Below are positions 560-32,150 of a stretch of DNA of 64,000 bases, one piece after another; position 1 is the stretch's first letter; each line of letters opens with the position of its first letter. The translations under genes and the position numbers were made by a program. The DNA is from Dehalococcoidia bacterium (GTDB lineage: Bacteria; Chloroflexota; Dehalococcoidia; SHYD01), in contig CBDDEI010000002.1 of NCBI GenBank assembly GCA_965226775.1, positions 653,638 to 717,637 on the forward strand. The letters run 5' to 3'. The notes beneath the pieces were generated by a model that saw only the letters and a program-made list of their open reading frames with translations, searched no databases and was not told where the DNA came from.

Positions 560-1860
560 GATCCAGAACGAGAAGCAGTTTCTGGACTAAGAATGGACCA
601 GGCCTTCATCTCGCTATAAGATTGCCTGCAGTGTTAGGAGATAGTCTGTAGCACGATTTATGACACTTTGACGTCGATAATGCCAGCTGACTTAAAGGGC
701 TTCGAAGAGCGTATTGGATGAAGCGGTAGAAGGCTTCCAGGACCAGTTAGAGAGTGCTAAAGACGAAAGCTGACCAATGATGGTTTTCAATTCTACCGCC
801 TATTGGTTGGAAGGGTGAATCGCTTGCCTAATGGCAGTCAGAATTGCGTCTTCAAAGACCTTACGAGAAAATCCCTAATGGGCTGTCCTTCTCTACCTCC
901 AACGGCGAACCTTGCCTATCACTGAGCCCGCTCTAGTATGGAGCTCTGACAGAACCAAGTTGCTTTGGCAAAAGTCAGCTCAATGAACTGGTAGCTTTAT
1001 CAGGACTCGTAGCTGAGTCCTTAAAGCGCTTGCCTGGCGAGTTAGCCATTTTGATACTGAACTTGGGATCCTGTTGCTTCAATGTGAGAAGGAGCCCAGT
1101 TACCATGCTTCCCTCAATGGGCATCCTCCAAGTTCGTTTGAAAGGCTGCTGCCTTTGCCAACATGAATCGAGAAAATGCTTTAGCTGGGGCTGACTTGCC
1201 TTCCAAGTGCTCCATGTTGAATTTCTCTATTAGAGAGTTGCGAATAGCGTCCCATTATTACTATGGAGCAAATGCCTGGAAGCGTAGGCCGCTTCAAGGC
1301 TAGAGGTCCCGAACTCTCGCCTCTGATGAATGAAACCTAATCATCGATAAGCTAATTCACCAATGAGATAGCTTCAGCCCGATCCTAACGGCAAGGGCAT
1401 GTCTCCTAAGCTGGAAGCTTACGCTCTCTAATGACCTTAAATCGACCTCATGTCTCAGCTATATAAGCCCTATGATTTCATCTTAAGAGTGGCTGATAGA
1501 TCAAGCGGGGGGCTATTGCTAAACCTGGATTCAAGGAAACCTTCGGCATAGAGGTGCAGCCCTCTGGCCATGAAGCCAAAACCGAATCATCCATCTCTTC
1601 CAAAACGATAAGGATGGGTTGCTTAAGCCGATGGTGTTCGTCCAAGTCGTAAATTGCAGACGGCCTCGCGGAACACTTGCTTTCTAGCTCTTTAACCTTT
1701 GCAAGCACTTCATCCAAGGTGATTGATTGATGTGTGGAGGATAGTTGACTCATGTATTACACCATTGCTAGGAGGGATATGCACCTTTTGTAAGGCCTAT
1801 TGTCTTGCAGATTGACCGCCAACGTCAAAGTCCTTCGTAGAATTCAGACTTTCCTTCCCT
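560..1860. other. AT-rich (~47% GC) ORF-poor region, probably decayed foreign DNA or a non-coding element
   Basis: Composition is visibly lower-GC than the flanking ~63% GC coding DNA. Only one 91-aa ORF (1478-1753, -) with no RBS. Lies directly downstream of the prophage portal gene. Confidence 0.5.
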
Positions 1861-1895
1861 CACCCTAACCCTCTCCCAGAGGGCGAGGGAAGCAC

Positions 1896-3224
1896 TTAGC
1901 CCTCCTCCTCTCGCCACCTAGCCAGCTCCGCGTCGGGGTCGGCCACGCCGAGCAGGTCCGCCGCGGTGTGGCGAGAGTGGATGCCCGCCGCCACCAGCGC
2001 CGTCTCATCGGCCACCAGGCGGCTGCGGTCTTGCGGCAGCACCGAGCCCCAATTGATGCCCAGTCGCACCGGCCCAAAGCGCTGATCCGTCTTTTGCTCC
2101 AGCACCCGCAGGATCATCTGGTTTCGTTGCCGGTAGGCCGCGCTCCTGATGAGCCGCTTGCGCTTCACCTTCTGCAACAACGGGTGCAGCTCCATCTCCA
2201 ACGCCACGCCGGAGAGCGCTCGGCTGTTGTCGCCAAAGCTGGTGCGGGGCGCTTCCCCCAAGTCGTGGAGCGCCCGGTACAGCAGGTCGATGTAGCTGGT
2301 GTGCAGTTGCACGCCGCCGCCCTGCAGCAGATCCAGGAGGTATGCCTTAGCCCGCTCCGGCAGCTCCCACACCGCGCCTGGCTGCACTGCGATGTCCTGC
2401 GCGTCCTCCACGTTCTCCAGCACGGCAATGGGGTTGCCGGAAAGCTCGAGGATACTGGAAAGCTGGGTGAAGGCTCGGTTCAGCTCCCGGGCCGGCTCCA
2501 TCAAGGGGGCCAGGTCCGACACCCCCCAGAACTGCTTGGCCTCCCTTAGGTTGGGGAAGACCACAAAGGGGATGAAGCCGTAAGGGTTGGCCTTGGACTC
2601 CAGCAGCTCCCCCTCCAGCCAGAGCTGGAAGGCGTCTGCCGTCCACACCTCCGTAACGGCGTAGCTCTGCTTCTGCTGCCGAGCGCCCCGCGTCCTGCCT
2701 GCGGCCAGCGCCTGCGCGCCGTACAGCGCTGCCGCTTCTTCTGCGCTCAACGCGTACCGGCTGGCCACGCGCCACAGCCGGCCGGGGTCGTCGCCCCACC
2801 ACCAGACGTAGAGGCCCTGCACGTCCGGCGCGGTAACCCGCACCCGGCCTTGCGCCGGGTCCCAGGTCACTTTGAAGCAGCCGTCGCCCAGGATGGCGGT
2901 ATCCACCTCCGTGTCGAAGTCCAACTGCGCCAGGCCGTTGGCATCGTAGACCTGCGCCAGCGCGCGCTCCGCCTTGGTCGCCGCCTCGGCTGCCTCCGGC
3001 GAGGTCTCCCACGCCTCCGCGGTGTAGGTCACCTCGCTCATAAGATAAGAGGTAGCCTTCTCGACGAGCACCTTGGCGTAGTTGAAGGTGAGACGGCGCT
3101 CCCTGCGCCACGCCCGGCCCTGCCACTGCGCGCCTCGGTAGAACTCCAGGTGTTCTCTGTAGCGCCGGAACCGTTCCTGATCCATGCGGGCGAGTTGCTG
3201 TGGAAAGGGTGCTGTTTGTTCCAT
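1896..3224 (-). CDS. Phage portal protein (SPP1 Gp6-like family)
   Basis: 442 aa with a portal-family conserved core (…SSILELSGNPIAVLENVEDAQ…). Immediately downstream of terminase genes. Confidence 0.8.
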   Translation of the reverse strand: MEQTAPFPQQLARMDQERFRRYREHLEFYRGAQWQGRAWRRERRLTFNYAKVLVEKATSYLMSEVTYTAEAWETSPEAAEAATKAERALAQVYDANGLAQLDFDTEVDTAILGDGCFKVTWDPAQGRVRVTAPDVQGLYVWWWGDDPGRLWRVASRYALSAEEAAALYGAQALAAGRTRGARQQKQSYAVTEVWTADAFQLWLEGELLESKANPYGFIPFVVFPNLREAKQFWGVSDLAPLMEPARELNRAFTQLSSILELSGNPIAVLENVEDAQDIAVQPGAVWELPERAKAYLLDLLQGGGVQLHTSYIDLLYRALHDLGEAPRTSFGDNSRALSGVALEMELHPLLQKVKRKRLIRSAAYRQRNQMILRVLEQKTDQRFGPVRLGINWGSVLPQDRSRLVADETALVAAGIHSRHTAADLLGVADPDAELARWREEEG

Positions 3225-3651: not shown

Positions 3652-5025
3652 TTACGCATTGCTGTAACTCCGACCTCTCGCACTCCGGGGCTGGTACATA
3701 CTCGCCGCCTCCAGGGTGAGCGCTAAGCTCATCAGGTAATCGTCATGGCCGTCCCGCTCCTTCACGTAGAATTGCATCCGTTGGTTGGATCGATACTCTC
3801 CTTGCGCCCGCTGCAACTGCCGCCACAGCTCCCCACACTCCTCGGTGCCGTCCGGCGCATACAGCTTCAGGCGATGCAGGTTGGCTGCCGCCAGCAGCGC
3901 GAAGCCCAGGCGTGACTTGCTCTCCGCACTGAACACAAAGGGGTGCGCTACGGCCGCGCCCAGCAGTCGCTGGAGCATGCTGGCGATGCCTTGGCCCAGG
4001 CCCGTGGCGTCTACTAGCACGCGACGGCAATGCCAGGTGCGCCCCAGTAGGCCCGACAGCTCGCCGATGAGCGACGCGTGGTCGCGGCCGCTCCAGCGCG
4101 CGTGTTCCACCACCTCGACTCGTGGCGCGGGCACCAGTGACGGCTCATCGCTGGGCATCACCCGCGCGATGGTCGCCACTGTGGCATCGTGTTCCCGCGC
4201 TCCTTCGCCCTCTCCCGCGCCGCCGCCAATATCGACGCCCGCCACGTAGACGGCGCCGTCGGGCGCGTGCAGCCGGGGGTGGTCACCCTGCAACCACGCC
4301 AGCTGTTGCGCGCTGAACAGCCCGAGGCCGCCGTGGAGCGGCTCCAGGCAGTACTGCGTGCGGAACAGGGGATGGTTGCTCCCCAACCGCGCCTCTTCGC
4401 CTGCTACGTAGACGCCATAGTTGGGGTTGTGTCGTGCCACTTCTTGCCAGTCGTAGTGGAAATGGCGTTGTATGCCATCCTTCCGCTCTAGCTCCAGGTT
4501 CACCTGTTTCTGCTGCTCCAGCAGCGACTCGCCGTCCCAGGGCGTGCCGTATAGCACGGTAGTGGCGTTGGCGCTGGCCCCCATGGGCCGGAACTCCTTC
4601 TGATACTTCTCCGGGTCCACGTCCTGGGCCTCGTCCACCTCCAGCAGCAGGTCGGCGGTCGCGCCCACCACGTTGGCCGACGGTTCCGCGCTGTAGAAGC
4701 GTTGCTGCGCCCGGCCCAGCCGCACCAGGTAGCCGTGCTCCGTGCGGACGTGGTCGCCGTAGCCCGCTTCCGACAAGCGAGCCCGCAGCCGCTCCATACT
4801 GATGAGCGCCTGAGGGGCAAAGGTGGGCGCGCACTTCACGCCGCTCCCGCCCTTGAGCATGTGGAGGGTCAGCAGCAAGGTCTCCAGCTGTGCCGAGAGT
4901 TCGTTCTTGCCTCCCTGCCGGGCGATCTCCACGGTGAAGGTAAGGCCGTTGCGGTTCAGCACGCTGTCCAGCACCGCCCGCCCGACCTCTACCTGGTACG
5001 GCCGCAATTTACGCATCACAGCCAC
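3652..5025 (-). CDS. terL: Phage terminase large subunit
   Basis: 457 aa with an N-terminal ATPase (Walker A-like GGKN, Walker B LLEVDEAQD) and a C-terminal RNaseH-like nuclease with acidic residues (VAGVDIGGG, HDDY). Confidence 0.85.
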   Translation of the reverse strand: MAVMRKLRPYQVEVGRAVLDSVLNRNGLTFTVEIARQGGKNELSAQLETLLLTLHMLKGGSGVKCAPTFAPQALISMERLRARLSEAGYGDHVRTEHGYLVRLGRAQQRFYSAEPSANVVGATADLLLEVDEAQDVDPEKYQKEFRPMGASANATTVLYGTPWDGESLLEQQKQVNLELERKDGIQRHFHYDWQEVARHNPNYGVYVAGEEARLGSNHPLFRTQYCLEPLHGGLGLFSAQQLAWLQGDHPRLHAPDGAVYVAGVDIGGGAGEGEGAREHDATVATIARVMPSDEPSLVPAPRVEVVEHARWSGRDHASLIGELSGLLGRTWHCRRVLVDATGLGQGIASMLQRLLGAAVAHPFVFSAESKSRLGFALLAAANLHRLKLYAPDGTEECGELWRQLQRAQGEYRSNQRMQFYVKERDGHDDYLMSLALTLEAASMYQPRSARGRSYSNA

Positions 5026-5123
5026 GCACTACCCACGGCTCAATCCGTCCAGGGTGAGCGAATGATCCGATTGAGAAAAATGGTGAGTCAGGTGTTGATT
5101 GAAATGCTTCCACAAACCGGTCC

Positions 5124-5357
5124 TCATGCCATACCCGACCATTTCAACAGCAGCTGCGTCAGCACCGCGCCCGCCACTAAATAGAGCAGCCCGTTGATGC
5201 GGCTCCGCACCTCTGCCATCTCCCGCTCCAGTGCCGCCAAGCGCGCCGCCAGCTCTATCGCCGACACCACGGCGCTTGGAGCAGCAGCCGGAGCGTGATT
5301 GCCCGCCGCGCGCGACCGCTGTAGCAACGACCGCAGCGCGCGGGTGAACTCATCCAC
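5124..5357 (-). CDS. Small phage-associated protein with coiled-coil and C-terminal transmembrane helix
   Basis: The GTG start overlaps the stop of the upstream gene (GTGGATGA coupling). C-terminal hydrophobic helix LLYLVAGAVLTQLLL. Confidence 0.4.
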   Translation of the reverse strand: MDEFTRALRSLLQRSRAAGNHAPAAAPSAVVSAIELAARLAALEREMAEVRSRINGLLYLVAGAVLTQLLLKWSGMA

Positions 5358-5706
5358 GGGAATCTTCCTCCGGCAGCAGCAACTCGCCGACACCCTTCAG
5401 CACACCCACCGCGCTCTGAAAGAGATCGTCCTCACTCTTGCCGCTGATGCGATAGCGCGCCGCCACCGCGCGCACTAACAGCTCCATGCCCCGCAGGATC
5501 ACGGGCATGTCATCCGGGTGCTGTGCCAGGCTGCTGTACAGCTTCACCCGTAAGACCGCGATCTCCTCGTCCAGTCCCTCCACCGCTCGTGCGGGACCTA
5601 ACGCCGCTTGCTCGGCTTCCTGGAGCGCGGTGGTGTAAAAGTCTCGAGCGACTTTACGGGTCCGCCGCCGTTTTACTGGATGGACTCGCTCCGGTTCCTT
5701 AGTCAT
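5350..5706 (-). CDS. Hypothetical phage-associated protein (118 aa)
   Basis: In-frame ATG at 5706 overlaps the stop of the preceding small gene (ATGACTAA). The N-terminal extension offered by the ORF track (to 5757) is Arg/Cys-rich and unlikely to be real. Confidence 0.45.
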   Translation of the reverse strand: MTKEPERVHPVKRRRTRKVARDFYTTALQEAEQAALGPARAVEGLDEEIAVLRVKLYSSLAQHPDDMPVILRGMELLVRAVAARYRISGKSEDDLFQSAVGVLKGVGELLLPEEDSRG

Positions 5707-5845
5707 GCGGCTCCTCGAGCAGTGCCAGGATCTCCGGCAGAGTGTCCGGCACCGCATCCTCCAAGGTTCGTAGCAGGCCCAACGCGAGCAACAGCGCCAC
5801 CAGCTCCCATTGCTCCTGTTTGATAGCTTGTTCCAATGTGCTCAT
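5699..5845 (-). CDS. Small hypothetical protein (48 aa), translationally coupled
   Basis: Not in the ORF track (too short). ATG preceded by AGGAGG. The start overlaps the stop of the 5842-6144 gene (ATGA). Acidic, helical sequence. Confidence 0.4.
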   Translation of the reverse strand: MSTLEQAIKQEQWELVALLLALGLLRTLEDAVPDTLPEILALLEEPHD

Positions 5846-6144
5846 GCCTTGCCTCCTGTGAGTCGAACCAGCAGTCGCTGCACTACCGCCAGCGCAATCG
5901 CCAGGCTCCCTAACGCGACCATGCCTTGGGCTAGCGCAGCCGTTTCCGGCGACGGTTCAGCGCCGCGCCAGAGACTTACCCCGTGCACAACGCTCTGGGC
6001 CAACGTCCCGCCGCACACCAGCGCGAGAATGTTTGCGCTTCTGCGCCGCCGGTGTCCTAGGGGGCGGATCGTGGCAAAGTAGGCTGCGTTGCCCGCGCTG
6101 GCAAGCGTAGTGATAGCGTGTAAAATCAGCAGTCCTTCTGTCAC
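5842..6144 (-). CDS. Small membrane protein (3 predicted TM segments; holin-like?)
   Basis: 100 aa, hydrophobic. First gene of the coupled small-gene string upstream of terL. Confidence 0.4.
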   Translation of the reverse strand: MTEGLLILHAITTLASAGNAAYFATIRPLGHRRRRSANILALVCGGTLAQSVVHGVSLWRGAEPSPETAALAQGMVALGSLAIALAVVQRLLVRLTGGKA

Positions 6145-6330
6145 CGTGCTCCTCTACTGGCCGGGCTGTCCCCGCCCTCATTCAGTACCGCCACTCAACA
6201 ACTTCCTACCGCGGGGCAAGGCTCAGCCCGACCAGTGAAGTAAAAATAGAATAAACGTTCTAATTTAGTCAAGACAAATGGCACAGATGTAACCGTTGTC
6301 ATTACGAGAAGAGTGGGGAGTGCGTCGGGC

Positions 6331-7217
6331 GTGGCAGCCACCCCCGCTCGTGGTGAGCTAGTCGAACCAGGAGCAGGTGCGCGGGCCTCTGTCATTGCGA
6401 GGACTCGCCCTAAGGCGAGGCCGTGGCAATCTGGGGCGGGGGAGGAGGCGTTGCCCGTAGCCTGCGCGTGGGACACTCCCCGACACCGTGCCTCCCCGCC
6501 TCCCCAGATTGCTTCGCTCCTGCGTCGCTCCTCGCAAAGACGGGCTCACCATGAGCGGAGCGGGCAGCGTACCCCCGCTCATGGTGAGCTAGTCGAACCA
6601 GGAGCAGGCGCTGGGCCTCTGTCGTTGCGAGGACTCACCCTAGGCGAGGCCGTGGCAATCTGGGGCGGGGAGGAGCGCCGTTGCCCGTTGGCCTGCGCGT
6701 GGGACTGCTCCCCGACACCGTGCCTCCCGGCCTCCCCAGATTCGCTTCGTCACTCCTGCGTCGCTCCTCGCATGGTTCGACGGGCTGCGGAGCGGAGCGG
6801 GCAGCCACCCCCGCTCATGGTGAGCTAGTCGAACCAGGAGCAGGCGCGCGGGCCTCTGTCGTTGCGAGGACTCGCCCTAGGCGAGGCCGTGGCAATCTGG
6901 GGCGGGGGAGGCGCCGTTGCCCGTTGGCCTGCGCGTGGGATGCTCCCCGACACCGTGCCTCCCCGCCTCCCCAGATTGCTTCGTCACTCCTGCGTCGCTC
7001 CTCGCAAAGACAGTGTGGAGCGGTATGGCAGCCACCCCCGCTCGTGGTGAGCTAGTCGAACCAGGAGCAGGACTCGCCCTGTAGGCGAGGCCGTGGCAAT
7101 CTGGGGCGGGGGAGGAGGCGTTGTCCGTTGGCCTGCGCGTGGGATGCTCCCCGACACCGTGCCTCACCCACCTCACCGATTGCTTCGTCGAACTCCTGCG
7201 TCGCTCCTCGCAAAGAC
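6331..7217. repeat. Tandem direct repeat, ~230-bp unit, about 4 copies (last copy internally deleted), with nested inverted repeats
   Basis: Unit starts (cccccgctcRtggtgagctagtcgaacc) at 6341, 6572, 6808 and 7035, giving spacings of 231, 236 and 227 bp. Within a unit, ttgcgaggactcg pairs with cgtcgctcctcgcaa, and gcaatctggggcgggggagg pairs with cctccccgcctccccagattgc. ORFs across the array shift frame between copies, so it is non-coding. Confidence 0.9.
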
Positions 7218-30056: not shown

Positions 30057-30608
30057 ATGCAGAGTTTGTTGAAACACCTTCCCGGGCGCACTAAGCTGGG
30101 GCGACGCTTGCCCCTCTGGGTCTTGCCTGTCACGCTGGTGCTCCTTGCGCTGGCCTGCAACCGCGGCCCGTACACCATCGACTGGTTCCCCGAGATGCAC
30201 TACCAGTCGTCCTTCCGGGCCCAGGAGCCGCCGCGGCTCTACCCGCCCGCGGGCTCAGTGCCCCGCACCGGCGCTGAGGTAGCCTTCGACTTTGCTGAGG
30301 CCGCTTCTTTAGTCAACCCCGTGGTTTACAACGCCGCCAACGCAGAGCGCGCCAGCAAGCTCTATCAGGTTAACTGCGCAGCGTGTCACGGTGCGGCGGG
30401 TCATGGCGATGGCTTGGTTGGTGAGAAGTTCCGTCTTGCTGGAGCAGCGCCGCCGATAGATTTCTCTCAGGACCGCACCAAGGACCGCTCAGAGGGAGAG
30501 CTCTGGTGGATCGTGACCAATGGCCTAGGCAACATGCCTGCCTGGAAACCGCTGCTTACGGTAGAGGAGCGCTGGCTCTTGGTTCACTACGCGAAGGCTG
30601 TTCAGTAG
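30057..30608 (+). CDS. actE: ACIII subunit ActE (monoheme cytochrome c, membrane anchored)
   Basis: Single CAACHG heme motif. N-terminal anchor or lipobox (LLALAC). 183 aa. Confidence 0.8.
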   Translation: MQSLLKHLPGRTKLGRRLPLWVLPVTLVLLALACNRGPYTIDWFPEMHYQSSFRAQEPPRLYPPAGSVPRTGAEVAFDFAEAASLVNPVVYNAANAERASKLYQVNCAACHGAAGHGDGLVGEKFRLAGAAPPIDFSQDRTKDRSEGELWWIVTNGLGNMPAWKPLLTVEERWLLVHYAKAVQ

Positions 30609-30621
30609 CCTTCCCGATTGT

Positions 30622-31370
30622 CCTCAACTCCAAGGTGGCATAGACCTCAAATGAGGCGAGGACAGAAGAAGCTGGCTGGGAGCAGTACCGCTCGCTTACG
30701 CTCCACGTAGCTCAGGGTTCCCACCCTGGGCGATTTTTATTCGCAAGCTGCTTAGAAATTCACCCCCACATTGTGGTGGAGAGGCCAATCCCTTCCCCCT
30801 CGATGGGGGAAGGCTAGGATGGGGGTGACTGAAGCGTACCCCTCTGCCCAAGGATTCTCAACGGAATTATAAAGCGTTCTCAACTCCAAGGCGGCATAAA
30901 CCTCAAACGAGGCAAGGACAGAAGAAGCTGGCTGGGAGGAGTACCGCTCGCTTACGCACCACTTAGCTCAGGGTTCCCATGCAGTGGGCGATTTTTATTC
31001 GCAAGCTGCTCGCAAATTCACCCCCATCCTAACCTTCCCCCATCAAGGGGGAAGGAATGGTTTTCTCCCCCCTAGTTGGGAAGAGCTGGGGGGTGACTGA
31101 AGCGTACCCTTCTTCCTAATGATTCTCAAAGGCAGCTAAGCGTTTCTCTAGGGCTAGAGCAGCAGAGACTTCAAACAACGCCTGCTGGATAGGATCCGTG
31201 ACCTCGACTACACGTACCTCATTTCCCTAACGCGCTCTTTTGCGTCTCAATAAAGCAAGCGAAACTCAAACATCTTGAAGAAGCTTCCTAGGCACAGTCG
31301 AGAAGAAAATCCCTTCCCCCTCGATGGGGGAAGGCTAGGATGGGGGTGACTGAAGCTACCCCTCTGCCCG
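30622..31370. repeat. Tandem direct repeat, ~257-bp unit, two full copies plus a distal partial copy, carrying palindromes
   Basis: Copies start at 30622 and 30879 (ctcaactccaagg…). The partial copy at ~31305-31370 repeats cccttccccctcgatgggggaaggctaggatgggggtgactgaagc. Palindrome cccttcccccTCGAtgggggaagg. ORF-free, ~52% GC. Confidence 0.85.
30711..30742 (+). terminator. Candidate intrinsic terminator downstream of the ACIII operon (also present in repeat copy 2 in degraded form)
   Basis: Stem cagggt/accctg with a 4-nt loop, followed within 5 nt by ATTTTTATT, ~110 nt after the actE stop. Confidence 0.35.
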
Positions 31371-31373
31371 CGC

Positions 31374-32150
31374 TTATCCCCCATCTCTAGGCGCCCCTAA
31401 CCGCGTTTCTATCGCAGCCCGCGTCGGGATGGCGCTCAGTCCTCTCCCTTGGATCGAGAGACTTGCCGCCGCGCTGGCAAACTGACCGGCTTCCCCCACA
31501 CTCCCTGTACGCGCGTACTCGCAGAGCAACGCAGCGGCAAACACGTCCCCTGCGCCGGTGGTGTCTACCACACGCGTAGGGTAGCTGGGCACATGCTCCC
31601 ACCGCCCCTCATGCCATAGCTGCGCGCCCGCCGCGCCCCGCGTCACCGCCAGAATGGGCGCTTGCAGCAAGGCGGGCTGGTCTTCCAGGCTATTGGGGGG
31701 CAGGTCTTCTTCCGACAGCGCTACGAGCGTAGTGAAGCCAAGGGCTTGCTCTGCGTTGCGCCACCCAATCGCGCGAACGAGGCCCTGCGCATCGCGCGCA
31801 CGCATCCAGCCCTGGGGACATACGCCGAGCACTGACGTTGGGAACAGGGCAGCCACTGCTGGGTCGACCTCCTGGGCCACAGGTGCCAGCAGGACGATAG
31901 GCGTGTTGCGCCATGCTGCCGGCACCGATGCGGCGTCCAGCGTCCTACATTCGCCGAACCAGCGCTGCTCACGGCCCGTAGCTGTAGCCTGATTGGAGAA
32001 CGTTGTAGTGGCCGGCGCATCGGTGAGGTGGAGCGATACTTCTGGCAGCGCAGCAGCGATGTCTAACTGTGCGTGAGGGTTTGAGATGATAGCCGCCCGC
32101 AACCCGAGTCGCGCGGCGGTAACGGCTGCGTAGGCGGCAGCGCCACCCAC
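31374..32150 (-). CDS. PfkB-family carbohydrate/ribokinase-like kinase (N-terminus probably extends via a non-ATG start)
   Basis: C-terminal DTTGAGDVFAAALL motif. The conserved N-terminal LDFLAIGQVTAD… is encoded in frame upstream of the first ATG with no ATG/GTG/TTG. Either a rare start codon or a lesion. Confidence 0.6.
   Translation of the reverse strand: MGGAAAYAAVTAARLGLRAAIISNPHAQLDIAAALPEVSLHLTDAPATTTFSNQATATGREQRWFGECRTLDAASVPAAWRNTPIVLLAPVAQEVDPAVAALFPTSVLGVCPQGWMRARDAQGLVRAIGWRNAEQALGFTTLVALSEEDLPPNSLEDQPALLQAPILAVTRGAAGAQLWHEGRWEHVPSYPTRVVDTTGAGDVFAAALLCEYARTGSVGEAGQFASAAASLSIQGRGLSAIPTRAAIETRLGAPRDGG

Follow-up and report, generated by a model that had tools for sequence, protein, structure and literature searches.

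Intrastrand triplex motifs, referred to as BoxC, PIT (potential intrastrand triplex), or TM (triplex motif) elements, have been on record since the 1990s; BoxC of Escherichia coli is said to go back to Bachellier et al. and the PIT elements to Hoyne and Maher in 2000. To our knowledge, such motifs have been assigned a single functional property, namely, that in E. coli they are statistically associated with variability among strains. Here, we describe a motif of this kind in a stretch of 64,000 nucleotides from a Dehalococcoidia bacterium (Chloroflexota), referred to below as the window, where three copies occupy the spacer between actE, the last gene of an alternative complex III (ACIII) operon, and a convergent pfkB gene for a carbohydrate kinase. 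Judged by its sequence, the element is a class II G/C-rich intrastrand triplex motif, i.e., one of a known kind, and it belongs to a different stem family from the motif described in E. coli. The core element and its association with instability are already known. New features are the Chloroflexota host, a cross-phylum CCTTCCCCC stem family, an explicit mirror covariation of stem and tail, and a base-resolution allelic series in which the motif is part of a ~256-bp array.

The architecture corresponds to the class II purine-motif intrastrand triplex motifs of Holder et al. (2015, NAR 43:10126, PMC4666352), for which BoxC and PIT are the earlier names. These motifs are defined by a pyrimidine arm, a complementary purine arm, and a reverse-Hoogsteen third domain, which follow one another 5' to 3' on one strand; the ITxF criteria call for stems of 6 to 15 nt with no more than one mismatch and for loops of 1 to 6 nt (PMC4666352). 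The E. coli representative, TM_ECO, has the pattern CCCTCNCCC-N3-6-GGGNGAGGG-N3-GGGNGAGGG, with TTA or CCG as the second loop. It is intergenic, found on either strand and sometimes in inverted pairs, and as an oligonucleotide it forms a very stable triplex by circular dichroism and nuclear magnetic resonance (NMR), the latter giving 18 imino signals (PMC4666352). Among 56 E. coli strains, intergenic changes were present at 39% of motif-bearing loci, compared to <1% of control spacers (PMC4666352). TM_ECO was reported from Proteobacteria only, with Chloroflexi unmentioned, and showed no link to mobile elements or transposase remnants, its origin and mobility being left unresolved (PMC4666352).

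The motif studied here shares with TM, BoxC, and PIT elements the order of domains, 9-nt G/C-rich stems, a TTA or CTA second loop, an intergenic position on either strand, and high conservation, and the loci that bear such motifs are far more rearranged among close strains (in the case of TM_ECO, relative to control spacers). It differs from TM_ECO in its stem (CCTTCCCCC/GGGGGAAGG with tail GGATGGGGG), in its Chloroflexota host, and in its location inside a ~256-bp tandem array with polymorphism in copy number, orientation, and patchwork composition, which is undescribed in the E. coli study. Repetitive extragenic palindromes (REPs), along with BIME and REPIN elements, resemble it as short, GC-rich, multicopy extragenic palindromes that occur in both orientations and in inverted doublets; they too are often placed between convergent genes, tied to rearrangements, and sometimes hit by insertion sequences (ISs). 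REPs are species-specific, with a palindrome preceded by a conserved 5' GTAG or GTGG and a cognate RAYT (TnpA-REP) gene. The module at our locus, in contrast, has a mirror tail that covaries with the stem, is near-identical across phyla, and lacks GTAG or GTGG at the foot of the hairpin, where the flanks are aaaGTC and TGA; no RAYT gene was noticed, although no search aimed at one was made.

H-DNA, which is known to give rise to stalled forks, breaks, and rearrangements, needs only a mirror repeat in duplex DNA. The segment GGGGGAAGG-YTA-GGATGGGGG is a mirror repeat of this sort, able to form reverse-Hoogsteen triads, but the locus strand also carries the Watson-Crick partner arm, so that one strand supplies all three. 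At a larger scale, the array is reminiscent of macrosatellites and variable-number tandem repeats (VNTRs), with a tandem unit of >100 bp and a strain-variable copy number, and of the products of fork stalling and template switching or microhomology-mediated break-induced replication, with short templated insertions from nearby (the patchwork of the third copy, M3, a 45-nt piece of pfkB in the strain designated L002, and 172-nt pfkB pseudo-fragments). The bacterial VNTRs described so far are mostly in genes or promoters, where they serve as phase or antigenic switches, whereas this array lies between two convergent gene ends with no obvious phenotypic read-out.

Triplex motif copies in the window

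An earlier note on this DNA, made from its letters without database searches, had pointed to a palindrome and a second G-rich run within a tandem duplication. Both are real, but they are two parts of one 35-nt module, CCTTCCCCC-N5-GGGGGAAGG-YTA-GGATGGGGG, rather than separate features, and the inversion of this module in the second copy had been overlooked. The palindrome is also "TCGA-centered" only loosely: its loop spans 5 nt and reads TCGAT or ATCAA. In the module, CCTTCCCCC is the pyrimidine arm, GGGGGAAGG is the purine arm, and GGATGGGGG is the third strand, which mirrors the purine arm (reversing GGGGGAAGG gives GGAAGGGGG; the tail is GGATGGGGG). Such mirror symmetry is a requirement of an intramolecular purine-motif triple helix because the third strand runs antiparallel to the purine strand.

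All three copies (TM1, TM2, and TM3; Table 1) have the class II domain order on one strand, and their 9-nt stems and their loops of 5 and 3 nt lie within the published ranges. In each copy, the third domain, taken antiparallel to the purine arm, gives only canonical G.G-C, A.A-T, and T.A-T triads. The 38-mer form of the motif is CCTTCCCCCTCGATGGGGGAAGGCTAGGATGGGGGTGA. The core hairpin, CCTTCCCCC-N5-GGGGGAAGG, has exactly three sites in the window (30791, 31033, and 31312), where shuffled sequences lead one to expect 0.03, and the G-run GGATGGGGGTGACTGAAGC likewise has three (30817, 31085 with 3 mismatches, and 31338; 0.04 expected). Our own ITxF-like triplex finder returned 0 matches in 30 shuffled windows.

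None of the three copies matches the strict TM_ECO pattern because their stem differs. The sole strict match in the window is a separate motif at 1857 to 1889, which shows that this genome has dispersed motifs of at least two stem families. The motifs of the window are intergenic and on both strands, four in number at two loci, and a related strain (L125, see below) reveals one more locus. The TM_ECO-type copy lies 7 nt past the stop codon of an SPP1-type phage portal gene (PF05133; open reading frame [ORF] 1896-3224, minus strand), at the edge of a phage-like region.

Table 1. Coordinates of the spacer, its repeat units, and the triplex motifs (positions in the window)
Feature	Position	Strand	Description
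TM1	30791-30825	+	CCTTCCCCC-TCGAT-GGGGGAAGG-CTA-GGATGGGGG; 9/9 Watson-Crick pairs, 9/9 triads
TM2	31021-31055	-	CCTTCCCCC-TTGAT-GGGGGAAGG-TTA-GGATGGGGG; 9/9 pairs, 9/9 triads; loop 2 TTA, the "type A" form
TM3	31312-31346	+	Identical to TM1
TM_ECO-pattern triplex motif	1857-1889	-	CCCTCGCCC-TCT-GGGAGAGGG-TTA-GGGTGAGGG
Variable spacer	30609-31373		Between actE (+) and convergent pfkB (-)
Tandem unit 1	30620-30875	+	T1 30620-30762, P+ 30763-30847, J 30848-30875
Tandem unit 2	30876-31140	+	T2 30876-31017, P- 31018-31117 (motif segment inverted), J' 31118-31140
Insert X	31141-31270		130 nt; gap before third copy
Partial third unit M3	31271-31367	+	T remnant fused to motif segment; abuts pfkB stop codon
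Inverted repeat CACCCCCA	30761-30768	+	Pairs with TGGGGGTG at 30820-30827
Intrinsic-terminator-like hairpin	30710-30741	+	GCTCAGGGT-TCCC-ACCCTGGGC, then GATTTTTATT; from terminator scan; hairpin itself 30710-30731
actE-position gene	30057-30608	+	c-type cytochrome, 183 aa; last ACIII gene; Pfam Cytochrome_CBB3 / Cytochrom_C; left spacer edge
pfkB	31374-32150	-	Convergent PfkB-family carbohydrate kinase gene; Pfam PF00294; right spacer edge

Recurrence and stem-tail covariation in other genomes

To describe the occurrence of the motif elsewhere, genomes were scanned for the hairpin only, with one genome per species and an exact stem required, and the resulting counts per genome or phylum are not quantitative. 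The scan gave more than 119 stretches. Among the matches listed, metagenome-assembled genomes (MAGs) of Chloroflexota and Dehalococcoidia are frequent, and Alpha-, Beta-, and Gammaproteobacteria, Nitrospirota, Armatimonadota, and others are also present. The tail YTA-GGATGGGGG-TGA comes after the hairpin at most of these sites, as it does at our locus.

The association of tail and hairpin was quantified with 142 independent hairpins from other genomes, picked on hairpin sequence alone. A perfect mirror tail accompanies 85 of the 142, and 96 have a tail allowing at least 8 of 9 triads, within 1 to 6 nt; loop 2 is 3 nt long in 82 of these 96 tailed hairpins. In control flanks located 100 to 200 nt away, a tail was present in 4 of 387 cases. 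Moreover, the tail follows the arm in sister stem families, namely, GGGAGAGGG>GGGTGAGGG, GGGGGAGGG>GGGTGGGGG, GGGGGAGGA>AGGTGGGGG, and GGGGGAAGA>AGATGGGGG, with AAGGGGAGG>GGTGGGGAT and GGGAGAAGG>GGATGAGGG as further mirror pairs of arm and tail; the sister-family hairpins were taken from loci chosen for holding the searched stem. For arms that are not self-mirrored, mirror and direct-repeat tails can be told apart: 45 of 126 such hairpins have a mirror tail and 16 a direct-repeat tail, while the number obtained by permuting the arms averages 25 and never exceeds 35 (200 trials). Template switching during replication yields direct or inverted repeats, not mirror ones.

Strict TM_ECO matches were also retrieved from Chloroflexota and Dehalococcoidia loci (L011, L016, L040, L069, and L070) and from a further locus, L087, and TM_ECO-type motifs adjoin CCTTCCCCC-type motifs in Dehalococcoidia MAGs. 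In the viral database IMG/VR, the motif is found on 9 contigs only.

Several further observations concern the form of the module outside the window. Loci L004 to L122, the matches of the hairpin scan, show a 38-nt noncoding module that hardly differs between Chloroflexota, Proteobacteria, and Nitrospirota. A variant in which a small extra hairpin separates the G-rich tail from the purine arm occurs in L024, L050, L052, L074, L091, L102, L111, L121, and others, as well as in L068, L071, L076, L086, and L108. It takes the form ...GGGGGAAGG-tggcccgcagggcc-GGATGAGGGGG in Paludisphaera and Roseiarcus and ...TTAGAGCCTGCCCCGTA..TACGGGG-ATGGGGGTGA in Dehalococcoidia, and in some of these variants the tail is no longer an exact mirror of the arm. 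Several Proteobacteria (L047, L094, L104, L093, L101, L031, and L033) carry inverted motif pairs, tail to tail and about 50 to 100 nt apart, which resemble REPIN doublets and the "palindromic TM" pairs of E. coli.

The tandem array and its structural alleles

In the window, the modules of the spacer follow the order T1, P+, and J (unit 1); T2, P-, and J' (unit 2); and X and M3, next to pfkB. T1 is the terminator-bearing 3' flank of actE, P+ is a forward segment with the triplex motif, and J is a 28-nt junction filler. The cytochrome gene in the actE position is preceded by genes for ActD (PF11821), two NrfD-like ActC/F subunits, an ActB-like protein, and an ActA-like protein, which confirms that an ACIII operon ends here. 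A repeat search bore out the tandem duplication reported in the earlier note, with two full copies at a period of ~256 bp and a distal partial one. Units 1 and 2 are direct copies of ~256 bp with about 90 to 92% identity, visible as direct repeats at 30620-30723 and 30876-30979 (104 nt, 92%, spacing 256), at 30727-30768 and 30985-31026 (93%), and at 30821-30864 and 31089-31132 (89%); the partial copy includes 60 nt at 31297-31356 that are 93% identical to 30776-30835. Tandem Repeats Finder reported no repeat on the spacer array because the copies differ by indels and an inversion, and the array is visible by gapped, modular comparison only.

The inversion concerns a palindrome-bearing segment of ~54 nt, I1, which is reverse-complemented in unit 2 (85% complementary). 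The pair CACCCCCA(TCC) and (GGA)TGGGGGTG brackets the segment whose orientation differs between strains as well as between units. Forward and inverted motif segments are ~15% divergent and have in common ~16 nt of lineage-specific flank beyond the core. Together, this shared flank and the bracketing short inverted repeats indicate inversion in situ.

The internal insertion or deletion that had been proposed from the spacing of the third copy is also present, in the form of the insert X. The ends of X weakly resemble the start of T, and X is kept at 94 to 98% in strains L123, L124, and L128 and is thus common to four strains, including that of the window; in L001 and L002, its place is taken by a 172-nt pseudo-copy of the pfkB 3' end. 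X matched nothing else in the window and nothing in loci L001 to L122, and its similarity to the pfkB 3' end was not significant (z about 1.8). In M3, a remnant of T (GAAGAAGCT..CAGT, 77% identical to 30665-30686) is fused to the motif segment, and a stub of terminator-unit sequence, M3pre, lies directly 5' of the third motif. When the modules were compared with the remainder of the window and with ~120 loci of other genomes, T, J, X, and M3pre had no counterparts, and the ~40-nt core was the sole part that did; a 22-mer from T is absent from the JGI metagenome collection.

Alleles of the spacer were gathered through exact-protein look-ups, which led to 11 metagenome-assembled strains of the same Chloroflexota species group as the window (genomes of ~2.2 to 2.35 Mb, ~60% GC, and ActE homologues outside the group at ≤66% identity). 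This comparison of ACIII 3' regions, which the earlier note had proposed as a check, revealed a hypervariable spacer between conserved flanks, with spans of 245 to 1058 bp, one to three terminator units, and the motif in either orientation. Single-unit alleles read T-P+ in L138 (245 bp; ActE 92% identical) and L131 (252 bp) and T-P- in L003 (253 bp). L128 (507 bp) has T-P- followed by J', X, and M3, while L126 and L132 (510 bp) have T-P+-J-T-P-. The window shares its arrangement (T1-P+-J, T2-P- -J', and X-M3; 762 to 765 bp) with L123 and L124. The longest alleles are L001 (1018 bp), which is the 510-bp allele plus two copies of a block made of the 172-nt pfkB 3' pseudo-fragment and M3, and L002 (1058 bp), which has T in triplicate, P- interrupted by a 45-nt pfkB piece, and one pseudo-fragment with M3. 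The L125 allele is truncated, its array being cut inside the TM2 loop by an IS of ~2 kb.

In all, there are at least eight structural alleles in the 11 strains, a variability that was judged against the flanks and not against matched motif-free spacers. The flanks are 97 to 99% identical, with no more than 8 gap columns over 2.5 to 6 kb (14 in L128). The polymorphism is confined to the spacer, and all structural breaks fall within 30766-31113 or 31271-31353, at or beside motifs. In each of two samples (ERZ21829562 and ERZ25071132), two alleles occur side by side. Look-ups with the portal, PfkB, and YidC proteins gave no new alleles and no reciprocal L125 junction. A distant ActE homologue (L139, 53% identity) is not syntenic and lacks the motif; therefore, the ancestral state is not traceable beyond the species group. 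As for the pfkB filler, the 45-nt piece inside the inverted motif segment of L002 spans 6259-6303, and the 172-nt pseudo-fragments of L001 lie at 6046-6571, where they repeat with a period of ~263 bp, close to the 256-bp period of the terminator unit.

The IS of L125 (ena:ERZ26694896:ctg117923, 5009-7014) sits at a point corresponding to about 31050 of the window. It encodes a DDE_Tnp_1 transposase and a 53-aa zinc-ribbon-like ORF and has inverted ends, GGGGCTTTGCACA. On its far side, the IS directly adjoins the purine arm, with tail, of another motif, beside an acetyltransferase gene and not pfkB, a junction whose sequence implies a larger rearrangement between two motif-bearing loci. The transposase gene (5339-6553, minus strand) belongs to a very large family (homologues P0121 to P0240), in which DDE_Tnp_1 usually occurs with a SWIM zinc finger; 7738 database proteins match at E ≤ 1e-60, and those named by source are from Chloroflexota or Dehalococcoidia. 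A general preference of this IS for triplex motifs is unsupported, as the other copies retrieved (L149 to L154) lack flanking motifs.

The region had been described as ORF-free. It contains no credible gene, but mechanical ORFs of 45 to 51 aa are present, and gene callers predicted a 35-aa ORF in X (MVVRVVEVTDPIQQALFEVSAALALEKRFAAFENH) in three strains (L123, 5075-5182; L124, 5076-5183; and L128, 4820-4927). In the window, a 1-nt deletion removes the start codon of the latter. We rejected it as a gene, given this frameshift and differences among strains that are mostly nonsynonymous, and likewise rejected a 19-aa ORF of the unit (ATGAGGCGAGG...), whose ATG is lost in copy 2. The cumulative GC skew of the window reaches its minimum near 30 to 32 kb, and rnpA, yidC, and jag lie just to the right. 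The idea of a replication origin was dropped: there is no dnaA or dnaN in the window, a 452-aa ORF has no Pfam match, and a 374-aa ORF encodes DnaJ.

Possible causes of spacer instability

We consider it likely that the spacer combines a triplex motif with the ACIII terminator, that the instability stems from this motif together with its conserved surroundings, and that the window holds one of many alleles. The hairpin would form from a single strand, whose tail would run antiparallel along the major groove and make G.G-C, A.A-T, and T.A-T triads. When unwound, the motif and its ~60-nt conserved surroundings would form a replication obstacle or fragile site, and the motif segments would serve as dispersed direct and inverted repeats inside the locus. 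As forks stall and switch templates, and as unequal recombination takes place, the terminator unit would be duplicated, deleted, inverted, and patched together, along with pieces from the 3' end of pfkB. We infer that the triplex, or another non-B structure, may form in vivo and contribute causally to the instability. In their sequence, the patchwork junctions, such as those of M3 with its pieces of T and P+ and those of the pfkB fillers, look like the outcome of serial template switching and unequal recombination, not of transposition, and by analogy, the hypervariability of the locus fits the link between TMs and instability reported for E. coli.

Several points weigh against this explanation. 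Once a 256-bp duplication exists, ordinary unequal homologous recombination explains changes in copy number, and the evidence for motif causality is correlational. The ~15% divergence between forward and inverted segments makes the inversion old and not an active or fast switch. The TM_ECO triplex was detected neither in duplex DNA nor by in vivo dimethyl sulfate footprinting, and earlier work cited in the same study found no polymerase block in vivo (PMC4666352). Folding the motif as DNA with ViennaRNA, which models hairpins and not triplexes, gives a hairpin of -10.6 to -11.1 kcal/mol, and the window has only two motif loci in 64 kb. In addition, the module is conserved past the needs of a triplex, with a TTGAT-like loop 1, TTA in loop 2, and aaaGTC and TGA flanks, and the third strand is GGATGGGGG at 67 of 72 sites, though AA, TA, and TT also allow triads. 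At the sequence level, this excess conservation hints at protein recognition or common descent, not structure alone.

In a rival explanation, the ~38-nt core would itself be a REP/REPIN-like or other mobile element, spread by a single-strand DNA transposase or horizontally, and the array and its orientation differences would come from repeated insertion or excision at a preferred site instead of replication errors induced by structure. Near-identical cores in Chloroflexota, Alpha-, Beta-, and Gammaproteobacteria, Nitrospirota, Armatimonadota, and others are consistent with such an origin, as are the conservation of loops, of the A/T choice in the tail, and of the flanking GTC...TGA, the REPIN-like tail-to-tail doublets (L047, L094, L104, L093, and L101), and the occurrence of either orientation at the same site in different strains. 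Against it, the ~16-nt lineage-specific flank common to forward and inverted copies (within the 54 nt of I1) favors inversion or copying in situ; there is no visible target-site duplication, and no transposase gene adjoins the locus in the window. TM_ECO, too, has no link to mobile elements or transposase remnants (PMC4666352), and the viral contigs number just 9. On balance, we regard a mobile core as unlikely. The related suggestion of a miniature inverted-repeat transposable element (MITE), made in the earlier note, has to be divided: neither terminal inverted repeats nor a target-site duplication accompany the 256-bp unit, which is not dispersed, whereas the ~40-nt core is a dispersed repeat, present in many other genomes. 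We would give a little less credence still to the notion that the motifs are not passive fragile sites but are recognized, either by an undiscovered activity that recombines or transposes single-stranded DNA or by a host protein that is conserved. Such recognition would explain the conservation beyond triplex needs (loops, A/T choice, and GTC...TGA flanks), the flipping in place between short inverted repeats, and the seeding of local duplications, and the allelic series of this locus would, if the notion holds, be a natural record of that activity.

The terminators of the array deserve separate treatment. The hairpin at 30710-30731 with the adjoining GATTTTTATT is a computational match to a rho-independent terminator; it starts 101 nt past the actE stop codon and has a predicted RNA folding energy of -15.9 kcal/mol (z -2.5). 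In all strains, the copy nearest to actE keeps these pairs, L128 with G-U changes, and by its sequence the element at 30710-30741 is the probable terminator of the ACIII operon. The duplicated terminators described in the earlier note stand as a plausible ACIII terminator in each unit, but the hairpin of copy 2 is degraded to 5 pairs in the window (30976-30988). On the minus strand, the hairpin of TM3 is followed by GATTTTCTTC and has a terminator-like score just past the pfkB stop, and this copy could act as a weak terminator for pfkB. Taken further, the array might be kept by selection as a terminator stack, shielding the convergent ACIII and pfkB-jag-yidC units from each other, in which the motif hairpins are extra terminators on the pfkB side or RNA-stabilizing 3' hairpins. 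Each full unit does have a terminator-like hairpin with a U-run, TM2 (plus strand) scored terminator-like in addition to the complement of TM3, and in many other genomes the C-rich strand hairpin is followed by GACTTTT or GATTTT. Nonetheless, near-identical strains have anywhere from one to three terminator units, internal stems decay in copy 2 of both the window and L123, and single-unit alleles carry the motif in either orientation, with no fixed arrangement kept. Together with the earlier finding, cited in PMC4666352, that PIT elements have neither terminator nor promoter activity in E. coli, these observations make a selected stack very unlikely. Under the triplex-motif explanation, the first terminator copy probably stays functional for ACIII, and the extra copies are probably neutral by-products.

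A different structure might also be responsible, with the G-rich half of the motif acting as a G-quadruplex rather than as part of a triplex. Mirror-symmetric G tracts always give four G runs, the sister motif GGGAGAGGGTTAGGGTGAGGG reads like a textbook quadruplex of the G3-N3 type, and the possibility was raised by the authors of PMC4666352. We consider it very unlikely at this locus, where the tracts of the family are 5-2-2-5 and allow at most two tetrads. The mirror covariation extends down to a terminal A (GGGGGAAGA>AGATGGGGG), which a quadruplex does not need; the complementary C-rich arm is always on the same strand; and the NMR data for TM_ECO, with its imino signals as noted above, fit a triplex and not a quadruplex (PMC4666352). 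Finally, we consider it highly improbable that each unit is a small RNA (sRNA) gene, whether independent or derived from the actE 3' untranslated region, and that the array consists of tandem sRNA genes, as the earlier note had also suggested. The stretch from the actE stop codon to the terminator (about 115 nt) is well conserved among strains and ends in a good terminator, the usual layout of an sRNA from a 3' untranslated region. Against this, Rfam gave no match in the whole window at the gathering threshold (best E value within 30500-31500, 0.99), and ARAGORN found no tRNA or tmRNA, despite a tRNA-like word, TAGCTCAG, in the unit. The only promoter-like site at the array is on the opposite strand, with none found on the plus strand, and the fold z-scores of the units, -2.0 and -0.24, are unremarkable. 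No compensatory changes were present in 37 predicted pairs across 12 distinct T copies, the unit is found nowhere else, and its conservation is no higher than that of the flanking genes (97 to 99%).

For annotation, it follows that the palindrome should be labeled neither a MITE nor an sRNA. The current understanding of ACIII and of terminators is left unchanged. For the motif family, the covariation of stem and tail provides evidence, of a comparative kind, for selection on the three-strand architecture itself. The allelic series, in turn, displays TM-associated instability at base resolution within about 1 kb, through one to three terminator units, both orientations, templated patchwork junctions, and an IS breakpoint.

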